Of a DNA stretch of 33,936 bases, positions 8,597 to 13,024 are shown piece after piece. The position numbers and the translations under genes were made by a program. The notes beneath the pieces are model-generated. The model had not been told where the DNA came from. It saw only the letters and a program-made list of their open reading frames with translations, and searched no databases. Source of the DNA: Clostridia bacterium (GTDB lineage Bacteria; Bacillota; Clostridia; UMGS1840); assembly GCA_017549265.1 (NCBI GenBank), contig JAFYVF010000116.1:1-33936 (forward strand), given 5' to 3'. The stretch's first letter is position 1, and the number at the start of each line of letters is the position of its first letter.

Positions 8597-9124
8597 ATGG
8601 AAATCAAATTACACACTTCTGAAGTAGAAAAAATTAAAAACTTAAAAGCAGGGGATATGGTTCTGCTCTCCGGCGTTATTTATACAGCCCGAGATGCTGC
8701 GCATAAGAGAATGACCGATGCTTTGGCAGCAGGCGAAGAATTGCCCTTGGATATTAAAGATGCAATTATTTATTATGCAGGTCCCACCCCTCCGAAGCCG
8801 GGTGAAGTGATTGGTTCTTGCGGACCCACCACCAGCTACCGTATGGATAAATATGCGCCCACTTTGTTGGATGAAGGTCAGCTTGGTATGATCGGAAAAG
8901 GTCTCAGAAACCAGGATGTTATTGATGCAATCAAACGTAACCAGGGAATTTATTTTGCTGCAATCGGCGGTGCGGGTGCGTTAATTTCCAAATCTATCAA
9001 AAAAGCAGAAGTAATTGCTTATGAAGATTTAGGTGCAGAAGCATTGCGCAGATTAGAAGTGGAAGATTTGTCATTAACCGTTGTAATTGATAAAGACGGC
9101 AACAATCTGTATGACAGAGCTTAA
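8597..9124 (+). CDS. Fe-S type fumarate/tartrate hydro-lyase beta subunit (class I fumarase C-terminal domain)
   Basis: LSGVIYTARDAAHKR, YYAGP, GPTTSYRMD, MIGKG, GGAGAL, EDLGAEA, IDKDGNNLY. Start could be ATG 8570 (directly after the HAD stop) or ATG 8597. Confidence 0.92.
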   Translation: MEIKLHTSEVEKIKNLKAGDMVLLSGVIYTARDAAHKRMTDALAAGEELPLDIKDAIIYYAGPTPPKPGEVIGSCGPTTSYRMDKYAPTLLDEGQLGMIGKGLRNQDVIDAIKRNQGIYFAAIGGAGALISKSIKKAEVIAYEDLGAEALRRLEVEDLSLTVVIDKDGNNLYDRA

Positions 9125-9821
9125 GAAAAAATCTGTATCGACCTCCACTCACGATGGGCACCGACAGAGACTTCGTGCTAAATTATTGTCGTCTCAGTTT
9201 GACTATCTTTGTCAGCATGAGCTGCTGGAACTTTTAACTTTTTATTCTATCCCCAGAAAGGATACGAATGAACTTGCTCATACCATTTTGAATTACTATG
9301 GCAATGATTTTTCTGCCGTTTTTGAGGCGAGTCCGGGAGAGCTTAAAAAGATTCCCGGTGTTGGAGAAAATACGGCAGCGCTGATTGCTTTGGTAAGTTG
9401 TATTATCCGTGAGCTTGAGAAGGAAAAACTGAAGGAAATGCAGGTGCTAAACACCACTGCAGAGATTGGCGAATATGTGATGCGACTGTTTTCGGGTCAC
9501 CGTAAAGAAGTGTTTTACGCAATCTTTTTAAATAACAGTCATAAGGTGCTTGCTTATTCTAAAATTACAGAGGGATCTGTTAACGAAATAACGGTGGAAC
9601 CTCGAAAAATTGTGGAAGAAGCACTGAAGTTTCCAAAAACCAAACAGGTGATTTTGGCCCATAATCATCCTAGCGGCAACCTTTCGCCCAGTGGTGCAGA
9701 TTTGGATACAACACGGCTGATTACACGGGCTTTGAATACTTTGGATATTCGTGTCAGAGACCATATTGTAGTGTCGGGACGGCAGTATTACAGTTTTTCG
9801 GAAAATGAATTACTGTTCTGA
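9111..9821 (+). CDS. radC: RadC (UPF0758) JAB/MPN-domain protein
   Basis: HDGHRQRLR, ELLELL..SIPRKDTNELA, HhH IPGVGE, JAB motif LAHNHPSG...PS.AD and DHIVV. Confidence 0.93.
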   Translation: MTELKKKSVSTSTHDGHRQRLRAKLLSSQFDYLCQHELLELLTFYSIPRKDTNELAHTILNYYGNDFSAVFEASPGELKKIPGVGENTAALIALVSCIIRELEKEKLKEMQVLNTTAEIGEYVMRLFSGHRKEVFYAIFLNNSHKVLAYSKITEGSVNEITVEPRKIVEEALKFPKTKQVILAHNHPSGNLSPSGADLDTTRLITRALNTLDIRVRDHIVVSGRQYYSFSENELLF

Positions 9822-10981
9822 TTTCTTTTGCTTTTTTTGTTTTTTTTTGTTTTTTTTGTAAGAAAAAATAACAGCAAAGGAAGGCCTACCGTAATCGGTA
9901 AGAATATGGTAGAAATGATAGGGTAATAAGCAGATAAATCTGTTGGAATCATACCGGAACTATATAGCAAAAACATAAAAATAACAGCTGAAAATGCTGT
10001 TATTTTTTTTATTGTGAATACAACAAGGTTCCGGGGCACCCGACCGCAATCTTTGATTGCGTTATCGGGTCGGGTTCTTATTTTTTTACGGAAGCATTTT
10101 GCAGATTTCAACAACCTGCAGATTGCTTTTACACCAATCCACAGACAAAGAGCGCCATATAGAATATCGCAGAACGAATATGAAAGCGTGATGAATGACT
10201 CAGCATTTTCCACCAAAATTCCCACTTCTATCAAAGATGCGCAAAAGTATGTGGGGAACCTTGTGTTTTGTAGCACCGTTTCTCCTGCAATATTCAGATT
10301 AAAAAGATATACAAGTGTAAACAAAAAGGTGGTCAAAAGCCCTGCTTTGATAGAAATTTCCCCAATATTTTGTTGATTTTTAAAAGAATCAAAAAGAATC
10401 CATAAAAAAATAATTTCTGAAAAAGGGGAACAGAAAAGCTGCCATCCCTGACGTAAAAACTGTGATGTCATAGTGGGCAATGGTAATGTGATTTCTTTGA
10501 TTTCTCTAATTCCCAAAATCAGTAATAAAATGACGGAACCAATTACAATGGGGAGGATGATTTCTGCAAATCTCCCCATTATTTTTTCTTCTTTCAGACA
10601 AAGATAAACTGTCAGCAGTAAGACCAGTAAAATTCCCGTTGTCAACGGAAAATTGGTAGTAATGGAATACTTGATAAACTCCATATAATTGGCAATGCTC
10701 AGATAACTTGCCGCCAAACTGTAAAGCGCCAGTATAATCAGAAAAATACGATTTCCGATTTTCCCAAAACAGTTTCGGGTTACTGTGAAAAAATCACAGT
10801 TTGGATGATGGTTTACCACTTTTTGAAACAGTAAGGAAAAAACTACAAAAATCGCAAAGCTAAGCCACACGGAAAGGTAGCCGGTTTTAGGGCCTGCGCC
10901 GTTCCCGCCGATTCCGGATAACACATTTCCGAACAAAAATGCAGTCATCAGTGAAAATCCTTGTCGGTCAGTTAATTTCAT
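9788..10981 (-). CDS. Spore germination receptor B subunit (GerAB/GerKB family permease)
   Basis: About 10 hydrophobic helices (G.F.EIILP, GILVENAESFI), third gene of the ger operon. Start set at ATG 10981 behind AGAAGGTG. Carries an apparent 26-aa in-frame insertion. Confidence 0.8.
   Translation of the reverse strand: MKLTDRQGFSLMTAFLFGNVLSGIGGNGAGPKTGYLSVWLSFAIFVVFSLLFQKVVNHHPNCDFFTVTRNCFGKIGNRIFLIILALYSLAASYLSIANYMEFIKYSITTNFPLTTGILLVLLLTVYLCLKEEKIMGRFAEIILPIVIGSVILLLILGIREIKEITLPLPTMTSQFLRQGWQLFCSPFSEIIFLWILFDSFKNQQNIGEISIKAGLLTTFLFTLVYLFNLNIAGETVLQNTRFPTYFCASLIEVGILVENAESFITLSYSFCDILYGALCLWIGVKAICRLLKSAKCFRKKIRTRPDNAIKDCGRVPRNLVVFTIKKITAFSAVIFMFLLYSSGMIPTDLSAYYPIISTIFLPITVGLPLLLFFLTKKTKKNKKSKRNQNSNSFSEKL
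10000..10087. repeat. GC-rich palindromic element in frame within gerB, flanked by 10-bp direct repeats
   Basis: TTATTTTTTT at 10000-10009 and 10078-10087 (78 bp apart). Between them ACCCGACC(10038-45)/GGTCGGGT(10068-75) and CGCAATC(10045-51)/GATTGCG(10055-61) form a bulged hairpin. Confidence 0.65.
10038..10087 (+). terminator. Possible intrinsic terminator for the + strand radC transcript, embedded in gerB
   Basis: The GC-rich hairpin 10038-10075 is followed by TCTTATTTTTTT on the + strand, ~220 nt after the radC stop. Confidence 0.35.
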
Positions 10982-10997
10982 AAAAGGCACCTTCTTT

Positions 10998-11594
10998 TTA
11001 TTTCTTAATATCTTTCACTTTTGTTATCGGAAAAAAGCCGTTTTCTGACAGTGAAACAGTTGGAATATTTTGGAGATTCTCCTGATTTTTGATGATTTGA
11101 TAAAGTTTGCAATTTAAAAAGTATTTTTCTTTGCGAAGCCACTGGGTGAGAGGAATTCCAAAGGATTTGTCCTCTTGCAAAAACAAGTCGTTTTCTGTAA
11201 AGTCTGCTCGCAATACTGAAATATCAGCCGGAATCATCCGCAGATAAAACAGTTCTTCCAACCATTTTCCTTCTGGGTTTTCTTGTAATTCTTTTCCCAC
11301 TAATAATACTTTTGCCCGAAACAAATAAAGGGGCGTTTTGGAATGCTTTTCAAGGCTGAAAAATGCTTCCTCTAAAGAAGGAGCGGACACACGAATTGGC
11401 TGCGTTTTAGTCATTTCTCCGCTCTTTTGCTCCGAAACTTTTGCACAATCAGCAATGAGAATATAATTTTTTTGATGTTTTTCCAAAAACAGACCTGTTA
11501 CAACAGAAATATTCCCCAACTCATCCTGTTGGACGCAGCCGGTTTGCATACTTAAGATACTTCCTGCAAGAACCCAGATCAGAAGCCTTTTCAT
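10998..11594 (-). CDS. Spore germination receptor C subunit (Ger(x)C lipoprotein), short 198-aa form
   Basis: Signal peptide MKRLLIWVLAGSILSMQTGC ending in a lipobox-like Cys, then EL...SVVTGL and SLEEAF...LYLFRAKVLLVGKEL typical of the GerC N-terminal domain. ATGA overlap with the gerA stop fixes the start at 11594. Confidence 0.75.
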   Translation of the reverse strand: MKRLLIWVLAGSILSMQTGCVQQDELGNISVVTGLFLEKHQKNYILIADCAKVSEQKSGEMTKTQPIRVSAPSLEEAFFSLEKHSKTPLYLFRAKVLLVGKELQENPEGKWLEELFYLRMIPADISVLRADFTENDLFLQEDKSFGIPLTQWLRKEKYFLNCKLYQIIKNQENLQNIPTVSLSENGFFPITKVKDIKK

Positions 11595-13024
11595 TTGTAA
11601 TTTTTCACCTTGTTTTTCTTTTTTAAAAATCGGTAGGGACCACGGATATAAATATCCCAAAGATTTCCTTTTTGAGGAATCATTTGAGCCAAATAGCTTT
11701 TCCCTGCAACAGTGATATCTGAAAGGTAAGTGATAAGAGCGATGGCTCCGAAGACCACTCCGTAAATCCCCAAAAAAGATGCAGCAATCAAGATAACCAA
11801 GCGGATTAAAATCAGCGGGCCCCTCATTTGTGGCAGAACGTTGGTACAAAGTCCGCTGATTGCCACAATGATAATGGCAGGTACGGAAATAATATTTGCC
11901 TCCACAGCTGTCTGCCCCAAAATCAAAGCTCCTGCAATACTTAAAGTTTGTCCGATTGCTGAGGGAGTTCGTGTGGATGCTTCTCGTAAAATTTCAAAAA
12001 ACAAAAAGAAAATAAAAAGCTCCAACGTGGCGGAAAAGGGAACATTCATTCTGCTGGAACTGATGCTCTGCAACAATTTTTCCGGCAAAATTTCCAATTG
12101 AAATTTTACAGCTGCCAGGTAAATGGCAGGTAAAAATATTGCAATCATGAATGAAATATATCGCAACAACCGGGAAATGGAACCGTAATAAAAATTTACA
12201 CTGTAATCATCCGTGGAAGAAAAATATTCGTGAAATAAAAAGGGGAGAGTAATCACCTGCGGAGTACCATCTGCCAAAATCGCAATTCTTCCTTCCAAAA
12301 GCTTGTGACAAACCACATCAGGACGTTCAGTAGAACCGGTGGTTTTAAAGGGAGAAAAAGGCTTGTCTTTTAAGAGCTCTGCCAGTTGATTGGTGTCGGT
12401 TAATCCGTCCGTTACAATTTCATGTAAACGGTTACGGATTTTTTTGACTAATTCGGGGTGACAAACGCCGTCAAGATATGCCATAATGACGGTGGTTTTT
12501 GTTTGATTGCCTACGGTGAAATTTTCCAGTTTTAAGTGTTCGTTTTTTAGTCTTCGCATAATGAGGGCGGTGTTAAATAAAATCAGTTCGCAAAAGCCTT
12601 CCCTTGGACCTTTCAGCGTTTTTTCGTTTTCGGGTTCTGAAACGGTTCTTGTGGCAGGGAATCTTGCATTTACGGCTAACGGTGTTTTGAAACCGTCTAA
12701 GAAAAAAATCACGTCTCCGGAGAACAAACGCTGTACCAATTCGTCTATATTTTGTATGAGAACCACGTCATTGGACTGAAATACGCTGTTTTTTAAAAAT
12801 TGAAGTTGGTCTTCTTGTTGGGAAAACAATACATTTCCGATAAAAGGTTTCACCACATAATCGTTAACCAAACTGGAACCAACCAAACCGTCTGAAAATA
12901 TTGCCAGCCCTTTTGTTTCGGGAGATACAGCGTTTTCCATATAACGAAAAACAATCATACAGTTTCCTTGAAACCGTTCTTGTAATTGGGTAATATTTTC
13001 ATCCAAATTTGTACTGAAATCCAT
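11591..13024 (-). CDS. Spore germination receptor A subunit (GerAA/GerKA family)
   Basis: EPENEKTLKGPREGF.E, TERPD, LLEGRIAILADGTP, R..VPF, EILREA..R.P..IG..LSI.G.LILGQ.AVEA. RBS AGGGGG. Confidence 0.93.
   Translation of the reverse strand: MDFSTNLDENITQLQERFQGNCMIVFRYMENAVSPETKGLAIFSDGLVGSSLVNDYVVKPFIGNVLFSQQEDQLQFLKNSVFQSNDVVLIQNIDELVQRLFSGDVIFFLDGFKTPLAVNARFPATRTVSEPENEKTLKGPREGFCELILFNTALIMRRLKNEHLKLENFTVGNQTKTTVIMAYLDGVCHPELVKKIRNRLHEIVTDGLTDTNQLAELLKDKPFSPFKTTGSTERPDVVCHKLLEGRIAILADGTPQVITLPFLFHEYFSSTDDYSVNFYYGSISRLLRYISFMIAIFLPAIYLAAVKFQLEILPEKLLQSISSSRMNVPFSATLELFIFFLFFEILREASTRTPSAIGQTLSIAGALILGQTAVEANIISVPAIIIVAISGLCTNVLPQMRGPLILIRLVILIAASFLGIYGVVFGAIALITYLSDITVAGKSYLAQMIPQKGNLWDIYIRGPYRFLKKKNKVKNYK

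Follow-up and report, generated by a model that had tools for sequence, protein, structure and literature searches.

The DNA analysed here is a 33,936-nt stretch from a Clostridia bacterium (GenBank assembly GCA_017549265.1, contig JAFYVF010000116.1; hereafter the window), which carries a gerB-type spore germination permease gene containing, in frame, a copy of a short hairpin repeat. Positions 10011–10082 very probably belong to a family of small, non-autonomous mobile repeats found next to terminators, one copy of which has moved into gerB, and as to what the element is and how this insertion came about we are nearly certain. The repeat family, its boundaries, the covariation of its structure, the empty site, the placement beside terminators and the open frame were all observed directly. 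The window belongs to a 1.4-Mb, 78%-complete genome (G000), which was compared with related genomes that include a sister species of the same genus (G006).

An in-frame insertion of 69 nt in gerB

A preliminary description of the window, made from its letters alone, had reported the 10-mer TTATTTTTTT at 10000–10009 and again at 10078–10087, a GC-rich core between the two copies, a strong fold and a continuous minus-strand reading, and these observations were all borne out. The 10-mer occurs four times in the window compared with 1.45 expected (5 of 100 shuffles get to four), a count on the letters of 10027–10077 gives 31 G or C in 51, the element stretch folds with a minimum free energy of −25.4 kcal/mol (z −4.9, a value that none of 200 shuffles equalled), and the minus-strand frame through it reads ...KKIRTRPDNAIKDCGRVPRNLVVFTIKKI.... 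The interpretation of the two 10-mers as a 10-bp target-site duplication did not survive comparison with other copies. All nine copies in G000, aligned with their flanks, run from ATTGTG to TTCTTATT, a length of 72 nt, and no flanking duplication is present at the other eight. The TTATT that begins the right-hand 10-mer is the repeat's own in all nine genomic copies, while the left-hand 10-mer already exists, as part of a hairpin stem followed by eight T residues, at the empty site of all nine orthologues that could be aligned. The apparent duplication is a coincidence of parts, the end of a hairpin stem and a T-tract on the left, and the TTATT of the element with leftover T residues on the right. 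The loose ends of metagenome contigs gather at 10004–10011 and 10081–10085.

The size of the insertion was defined by three further observations. The nine aligned GerB orthologues of the genus, a set that leaves out the G001 copy as it is cut by a contig end, all lack the insert and show a gap of 23 columns. The empty site of G003, T8-ATT-T6, equals the G000 sequence minus 69 nt, save for one extra T. Where the element occurs in tandem, neighbouring copies have one common ATT (…GGTTCTT ATT GTGAATAC…) and a period of 69, and the back-joints of such period-69 arrays are also found in metagenome contigs. Collectively these data show a net insertion of 69 nt bordered by ATT at both ends, equivalent to 23 codons, or 72 nt and 24 codons if both ATT triplets are included, rather than the 78 bp and 26 codons first proposed; with 78 nt removed, the loop would fall three residues short of the orthologues. 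The proposal of an in-frame insertion into a loop of a GerAB-type permease, by contrast, is upheld by the empty site in nine of nine orthologues. Copies in G006 are bordered by ATT on the left in 34 of 37 cases and on the right in 36 of 37. The flanking triplets may have arisen by 3-bp duplication of a strictly required ATT or, since the element also terminates in …TTATT, by its insertion 3′ of a …TTATT in the target, alternatives that the sequence cannot separate.

The presence of ATT on both sides of almost every copy is what a classical miniature inverted-repeat transposable element (MITE) would leave, that is, a cut-and-paste derivative of a DDE insertion sequence, if its 3-bp duplication were strictly ATT-specific, and G000 contains one DDE_Tnp_1 open reading frame (ORF), on contig C59. 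This explanation, in its 10-bp or its 3-bp form, is very improbable. The ends are not terminal inverted repeats, the 5′ end being GTGAATAC... and the reverse complement of the 3′ end AAGAACCC..., contrary to the MITE model put forward in the preliminary description, and the 10-bp version is refuted by the other eight G000 copies. No longer element with the same ends was found in G006, where 37 of 38 ends are paired at a spacing of 72 nt and none lies farther apart, or among the loci listed. Moreover, rve was found in none of five genomes of the genus and DDE_Tnp_1 in one of the five, the C59 ORF, and neither was found in G006 with its 37 copies.

The same comparisons dispose of the view that the segment is a native, lineage-specific GerB loop whose A-rich repeat merely reflects Lys-Lys-Ile codons. 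KKI is indeed encoded on both sides of the segment, but the same 72 nt recur in many other genomes and at eight further loci of G000, all outside credible coding sequences, and the segment is missing from all nine aligned orthologues; this reading is refuted, and we give it practically no weight.

A covarying hairpin between invariant ends

The left arm of 21 nt and the right end of 10 nt are almost unvarying, and the centre varies by lineage with complementarity kept. The left arm was fixed by the search pattern, and copies that were found by BLAST display equal conservation. The first 14 nt of the arm are unpaired, and folds of single sequences allow a small TTGT-GAAT-ACAA hairpin within the arm. 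The remainder forms one long bulged hairpin, of which the GC-rich core is the middle and inner part. Among the matches listed there were 118 left ends; the right end GGTTCTTAT(T) was present for 100, in 85 of these at 71–72 nt, and the 18 without one belong to copies that are truncated, degenerate or interrupted. Hairpin-less forms of ∼26 nt also occur and look like deletions between two GGTTC words.

A 22-pair, three-helix model of the hairpin was evaluated on 106 distinct copies. Paired cells amounted to 88.5%, compared with 36–58% when the partners were slid, and cells changed on both sides numbered 203 compared with 14–49. Compensatory change was evident in 12 of the 22 pairs, as the preliminary description had anticipated in predicting a hairpin with compensatory stem changes, and the observed values were met by none of 500 shuffles. 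Individually, 95 of the 106 copies fold with z below −2. Two fixed G.T pairs would favour the ATTGTG strand as the one that folds, but the remaining pairs give 60 GT compared with 47 AC.

Copies and spread of the element

G000 contains nine near-full copies of a 68-nt core, at 94–100% identity and on nine contigs, and G006 has 38 left and 38 right ends, of which 37 are paired at the canonical spacing. The expectation of a small, dispersed, non-autonomous palindromic family was therefore confirmed by nine copies in one genome and 37 in the other. In G006, 17 of the 37 copies are identical to one another, and 19 copies are forward and 19 reverse on its unordered contigs. Matches were obtained in 18 of 61 related genomes (G000 counted), which include seven of ten other species of the genus, and the copy number within the genus ranges from 0 to 38. 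The exact left-arm 23-mer was present in at least 115 loci of named metagenome-assembled genomes (MAGs), and the labels among the matches listed are Clostridia, Oscillospiraceae, Acutalibacteraceae, Ruminococcus, Sedimentibacter, Dethiobacteria and Syntrophomonadaceae, with one Bacteroidales. In four animal-gut runs the summed contig depth reached hundreds over the element and 2–5 on the gerB flanks. The right junction at gerB was present in two of the runs, X3 (no differences) and X6 (four differences).

No match to the element was found in a phage collection, and a plasmid collection gave one match, in a 2.6-Mb Acetoanaerobium record that holds the query locus and about five weaker matches (71–82% identity); the match site is unannotated. 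Rfam models, those of group II introns included, did not match the element in eight copy-bearing loci at E ≤ 1. The left-arm 15–16-mers, on either strand, were not found in the literature searched, nor was the family found in the literature on MITEs, on terminator-targeted mobile elements or on REPINs and RAYTs (see below) in Firmicutes and Clostridia. The family may already be catalogued under another name; PMC8040213, which catalogues putative structured RNAs from human microbiomes, might list it.

Two sets of candidate loci were considered and rejected. The tail common to L117 and L136 after the left end, a candidate for a long autonomous form, proved to be another repeat of ∼125 nt nested in the element. 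This second repeat has at least 45 copies (157 candidates) in G061, another Clostridiales MAG, and is in tandem at one locus. Four near-identical loci (L087 and L121–L123) reflect a segmental duplication of ∼1.1–1.5 kb that bears an AraC-like gene and not a transposase. In a Dethiobacteria-labelled MAG a ∼1.1–1.5-kb segment is duplicated within one contig (L238 6309–7806 and L239; G065 C1) and holds the element, a 179-aa ORF and an AraC-like gene with its terminator; ∼420 nt of this segment are almost unchanged in two Syntrophomonadaceae-labelled MAGs. G000 also contains a further short repeat family, which includes ...CTTCGGGCT.GTCAAGGCGTTGCCTTG and directly adjoins two copies of the element (C21:1159–1308 and C2:9612–9761, with matches on C88, C56, C75, C22, C28 and other contigs).

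Most copies lie behind terminator-like hairpins

When copies are oriented to begin with ATTGTG, a hairpin lies directly upstream in all eight G000 copies that could be evaluated. Six of these hairpins are followed by a T-run, and the other two are the hairpin of another repeat family. In other genomes a strong hairpin ends within 10 nt of the junction in 72–75% of 110 left flanks, compared with 17–24% of 889 TTTTATT control sites in G000, a control set that includes coding DNA. In G006 the upstream flank folds at −6 kcal/mol or better in 32 of 37 cases, and position −2 is T in all 37. The upstream hairpins of the G000 and G006 copies are unlike in sequence and hence are features of the sites, not parts of the element. 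The usual position of a copy is between the terminator of one gene and the end of a converging gene, and at three G000 loci (C127, C45 and C119) the AATAAG end of the element provides the stop codon of the converging ORF. The element's own hairpin, followed by TTCTT, resembles a target site, which would explain the tandem arrays.

The copy in gerB conforms to this pattern. The radC-like gene converges on gerB in all ten genomes of the genus, and in all ten a hairpin, AATAACAGC-loop-GCTGTTATT followed by T8, is located 129–159 nt past the radC stop codon, antisense within the gerB coding sequence. This terminator-like hairpin comprises 12 pairs before a T-rich tail, and in the gerB frame it codes for KKITAFSAVI. 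It is found with its stem unchanged at the empty site of all nine aligned orthologues, where the antisense strand reads hairpin-T8-[G/A]T[T/G/C]-T(n), and its stems are invariant at the DNA level in the ten genomes (9975–10010 in the window and the same site in L043–L052) although the GerB proteins are only 41–70% identical. On these comparisons we infer that the embedded hairpin serves as the radC terminator and is under dual constraint with the gerB coding sequence; a radC transcript would meet the hairpin and T8 first and then the element. The presence of a terminator-like hairpin and T-run within gerB, which the preliminary description had missed, explains why the element lies where it does.

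Coding insertions are otherwise exceptional. A frame was open through the element and 120 nt on either side in four of 130 copies, of which only the gerB copy is credible. The suggestion that the family has the habit of Rickettsia palindromic elements (RPEs), which add peptides to proteins, is thus at odds with one credible coding copy in 130 and one real protein family among four protein matches. The preference for terminators could come in part from the survival of harmless insertions. The gerB copy, however, the one credible coding insertion, lies precisely downstream of a terminator-like site, which argues that the preference is mechanistic.

The distribution also bears on whether the repeat is chiefly a functional module, a terminator-proximal DNA or RNA structure (3′-untranslated-region stabiliser, protein binding site or small RNA) that is kept by selection and has no transposase of its own, its spread being due, for instance, to template switching where TTATT microhomology adjoins stalled hairpins. 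Such a role would fit the 21-nt and 10-nt ends that are invariant across MAGs labelled as different classes, the copies that lie at the same sites in G000 and G006, the lack of a consistently found transposase, the TTATT-like microhomology at both junctions and the stop codons given to converging genes by the 3′ end. It sits less easily with the 17 identical copies in G006, the tandem arrays, the copies interrupted by another repeat family, the hairpin-less deletion forms, the copy within a coding sequence, the lack of an Rfam match and a copy number of 0 to 38 within one genus, and we consider it improbable, if less so than the MITE.

A possible route of movement

The target described above invites comparison with the group IIC introns of bacteria, whose insertion sites lie immediately downstream of terminator stem-loops and whose length is roughly 0.7–2 kb. 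A remnant or parasite of such introns, moved by reverse splicing and reverse transcription, would account for the target shape and for the orientation relative to the terminated gene, both of which are alike, and the core of the element begins GTG after the T-run. In contrast, none of the eight copy-bearing loci matched an Rfam family, RVT_1 (reverse transcriptase) was found in none of five element-rich genomes, 69 nt is too short for the ribozyme domains and no long form with the same ends exists among those searched, which makes this origin marginally less probable even than the MITE.

Several features would fit the handling of a folded single strand: the element has one orientation and no inverted repeats, its conserved sequence lies beside a hairpin conserved in structure, and it contains an internal AACAAG. 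The element very probably integrates in one orientation directly after a hairpin and T-run, the shape of an intrinsic terminator. It may move as a folded single strand of DNA on which a Y1 HUH enzyme acts in trans, either a REP-associated tyrosine transposase (RAYT), REP denoting repetitive extragenic palindromic sequences, or an IS200-like protein (IS, insertion sequence). In IS608 the guide and cleavage sequences pair, and in the same way the T-rich cleavage sites, TTTATT in the flank and CTTATT at the 3′ end, would find their complement in the internal AACAAG of the element. At the gerB locus, the terminator-like hairpin after radC was used as a target in the lineage of G000; the 69-nt unit, with one of three frames open in that orientation, gave gerB 23 codons in a basic loop between two transmembrane helices, and the allele is kept in a second lineage. 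Mobilization in trans by a Y1 enzyme is possible, though less likely than not. The wider proposal, that the element represents an undescribed class of single-strand hairpin mini-transposons of Clostridia and other Bacillota, which use the terminator as a structural target and are moved in trans by single-copy, vertically inherited, RAYT-like Y1 enzymes, is more doubtful still.

The search for an enzyme provides some candidates. G000 has one RAYT-like Y1 ORF (C119:10663–11187, 174 aa, HIH motif), located 540 nt from the copy on C119, and G006 has two RAYT-like Y1_Tnp ORFs with the HIH motif; in the latter genome Y1 alone matched among the six families tried (RVT_1, IS110, Y2, rve, DDE_Tnp_1 and Y1). 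Any match to PF01797 was obtained in 15 of 17 element-bearing relatives and in 27 of 43 without the element, genomes that are kin and not independent. IS110 was over the cut-off in one of seven genomes. Y2/IS91 was found in none of the seven, an uninformative result as the control genomes were silent too.

A number of observations weigh against parts of this picture. With respect to the enzyme, a copy of the element lies within 1.5 kb of only one of 30 RAYT-like loci, that of G000 itself, and the candidacy of this gene as a linked partner was rejected: the ancestral order is polA-RAYT-rarA (G004, G005 and G008), which explains the adjacency in G000, where the polA terminator accounts for the copy, and the adjacency is not conserved. 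Across 60 relatives the 174-aa RAYT-like protein and the element occur together in seven, the element only in ten, the protein only in 11 and neither in 32, a co-occurrence that is near chance. Of five other element-bearing genomes searched, four (G061, G062, G063 and G042) gave no match to the protein, and PF01797 was not found in G062 and G063; G061–G063 may be incomplete. Structurally, the element has one large covarying hairpin, with a weak 4-bp 5′ hairpin besides, and not the two subterminal hairpins of IS200/IS605. Mechanistic targeting is weakened by the possible survival of harmless insertions and by the coding DNA among the control sites of the flank comparison, and the ATT ambiguity leaves a 3-bp duplication indistinguishable by sequence from insertion 3′ of ...TTATT. 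Recent mobility, finally, is called into question by two, possibly three, copies that G000 and G006 have at the same sites, after polA (G000 C119 and L247) and after the gene for a 722-aa protein (G000 C75 and L240), so that near-identity between the species partly reflects shared ancestry and close kinship, not recent movement. The four runs gave no empty-site allele or excision junction for the gerB copy; their contigs on 9700–10400 include none that bridges the empty site and none that spans the whole stretch, and contigs cannot prove that an empty allele is absent.

The neighbourhood of the polA copy differs between the two species in other respects. The terminator hairpin before the element is wholly different in G000 and G006, with both flanks 92–95% identical. 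In G000 (C119:10120–11190) a two-gene block of ∼520 nt, comprising a 70-aa ORF and a 92-aa ORF with an XRE-like helix-turn-helix, lies between the right end of the element and rarA, with the RAYT-like gene next to it, and is present in none of the relatives' loci compared. In G006 the element directly adjoins rarA, and the RAYT-like gene (∼83% nucleotide identity) is at another locus, as in G003.

The altered GerB protein

In the orientation of this insertion one of the three frames of the element is free of stop codons, and the reading frame of gerB continues uninterrupted for another 74 codons. The element encodes 24 residues, IRTRPDNAIKDCGRVPRNLVVFTI, at positions 304–327 of the ORF. An AlphaFold2 model built on a ten-sequence alignment (mean predicted local distance difference test score, pLDDT, 69.9; predicted template modelling score, pTM, 0.70) places the insert between helices 254–293 and 317–341, numbered from the likely start at M4 of the ORF (MKLT...). 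Its first ∼16 residues are predicted as low-confidence coil, with pLDDT below 50 at 299–316, and the last ∼8 would lengthen the next helix. A protein word search found the same 24 residues in a 394-aa Spore_permease protein that is 95% identical overall, indicating that the allele has persisted with its frame intact through some divergence. The preliminary description had suggested a search for the peptide in unrelated proteins. The other three matches of the word search were ORFs of 83–131 aa without Pfam domains; with one real family and three short ORFs, the addition of peptides is not a habit of this repeat.

Features of the gerB locus

The coordinates of the element, its parts and the genes around it are collected in Table 1. 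GerA, GerAC-like and GerB are encoded by three adjacent minus-strand ORFs (PF03323, PF25198 and PF03845, respectively), with the first two upstream of gerB, the operon arrangement of a GerAB-type permease. PF25198, an N-terminal domain family, is the only match of the GerAC-like ORF (10998–11849, minus strand), which, read as 283 aa, shares ∼260 nt with gerA. Residue 86 begins a lipoprotein-like signal (MKRLLIWVLAGSILSMQTGC), from which the real GerAC-like protein is probably ∼198 aa. At 9820–9870 the plus strand has a long run that is rich in T and of low complexity and encodes the Lys-rich C terminus of GerB (KKTKKNKKSKRNQ); this C terminus has a three-residue indel relative to the 95%-identical protein, and contigs from public runs tend to break there.

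Table 1. Coordinates of the repeat element and of the features around it in the window.
Feature	Position	Strand	Remarks
Repeat element	10011-10082	+	72 nt conserved in all copies, ATTGTGAATAC...GGGTTCTTATT
Net inserted unit	10011-10079 or 10014-10082	+	69 nt, with a 3-nt ATT ambiguity
Invariant 5′ arm	10011-10031	+	ATTGTGAATACAACAAGGTTC; the same or almost so in copies of many genera
Long bulged hairpin	10025-10079	+	Three helices, 22 pairs in the family consensus
Invariant 3′ end	10073-10082	+	GGTTCTTATT; AATAAG on the minus strand can give converging genes a stop codon
Pre-existing target hairpin	9977-10010	+	AAAAATAACAGC-TGAAAAT-GCTGTTATTTTT into T8 (10003-10010); antisense within the gerB coding sequence
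Left 10-mer copy	10000-10009	+	3′ stem end (TTA) and T-tract of the target hairpin
Right 10-mer copy	10078-10087	+	The element's own TTATT (10078-10082) and five T of the flank (10083-10087)
gerB-type spore germination permease gene (GerAB family)	9788-10990	-	400-aa ORF; PF03845 Spore_permease, E 8.6e-21
radC-like gene converging on gerB	9087-9821	+	RadC PF04002, E 7.1e-37

Relation to known systems and implications

The element shares many traits with REPs, with their doublets (REPINs) and with the RAYT system. It is short, imperfectly palindromic, high in copy number, non-autonomous and mostly extragenic; it is placed after genes or between converging genes, and has neither inverted terminal repeats nor long duplications; and single-copy RAYT-like Y1 genes are present in G000 and G006. 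It differs in consisting of a single long hairpin preceded by a 5′ tail of 14 invariant nt, in place of a GTAG-headed REP of 35 nt or an inverted REP doublet, and its copies are single or in direct tandem (period 69) with no inverted doublets. The Y1 gene, in addition, is not flanked by copies (one of 30 loci), the element has a defined structural target of hairpin and T-run, and its hosts are Bacillota, whereas two studies place the REP-associated RAYT groups mainly in Proteobacteria (PMC5581495, PMC6006769).

With IS200/IS605 elements and their miniature derivatives, the palindrome-associated transposable elements (PATEs), the repeat has in common the lack of inverted repeats, hairpin-based ends and a fixed orientation. 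If ATT is part of the target word, it also resembles them in having no target duplication and in inserting 3′ of a brief T-rich word that recurs in similar form at its own 3′ end, such that head-to-tail arrays are possible, and the internal AACAAG is complementary to both cleavage words, as in the geometry of IS608. It departs from these elements in having only one large hairpin, and the searches described above turned up no full-length relative that shares its ends; to our knowledge a preference for hairpins in the target is not an IS200/IS605 trait. Like group IIC introns, the element inserts just downstream of the stem-loops of intrinsic terminators in the sense of the terminated gene, but at 69 nt compared with roughly 0.7–2 kb, and with neither ribozyme nor reverse transcriptase. 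The gerB copy resembles an RPE, a palindromic repeat in frame within a protein-coding gene that stays open, except that coding insertions of the present element are exceptional and this one is explained by the embedded terminator-like site. The element thus behaves like REP/REPIN sequences or IS200/IS605-derived miniatures and selects its sites like group IIC introns, while lacking defining traits of each. We rate it as a hairpin repeat of REP type that is set apart by integration next to terminators and by how widely it occurs among gut Clostridia.

Small hairpin repeats such as REPs are abundant, and their choice of site and their mover are settled for few, mostly in Proteobacteria. The present family offers a clean case, with exact boundaries, a covarying structure, a definable target and a natural experiment in which a terminator embedded in a gene drew a copy. 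It occurs in many gut Clostridia, and is so repeated there that assemblies will break at its copies and small ORFs will be called from it spuriously. A mechanistic basis for the structural targeting would amount to convergence with group IIC introns and would also provide a minimal DNA able to home to terminators; if a class moved by Y1 enzymes proves true, it would be the equivalent in Firmicutes of the REP/RAYT pairing, with a defined site of integration. The gerB locus itself illustrates that the terminator of a converging gene can sit within a coding sequence under dual constraint, and that a loop of a germinant receptor tolerates 23 extra residues.

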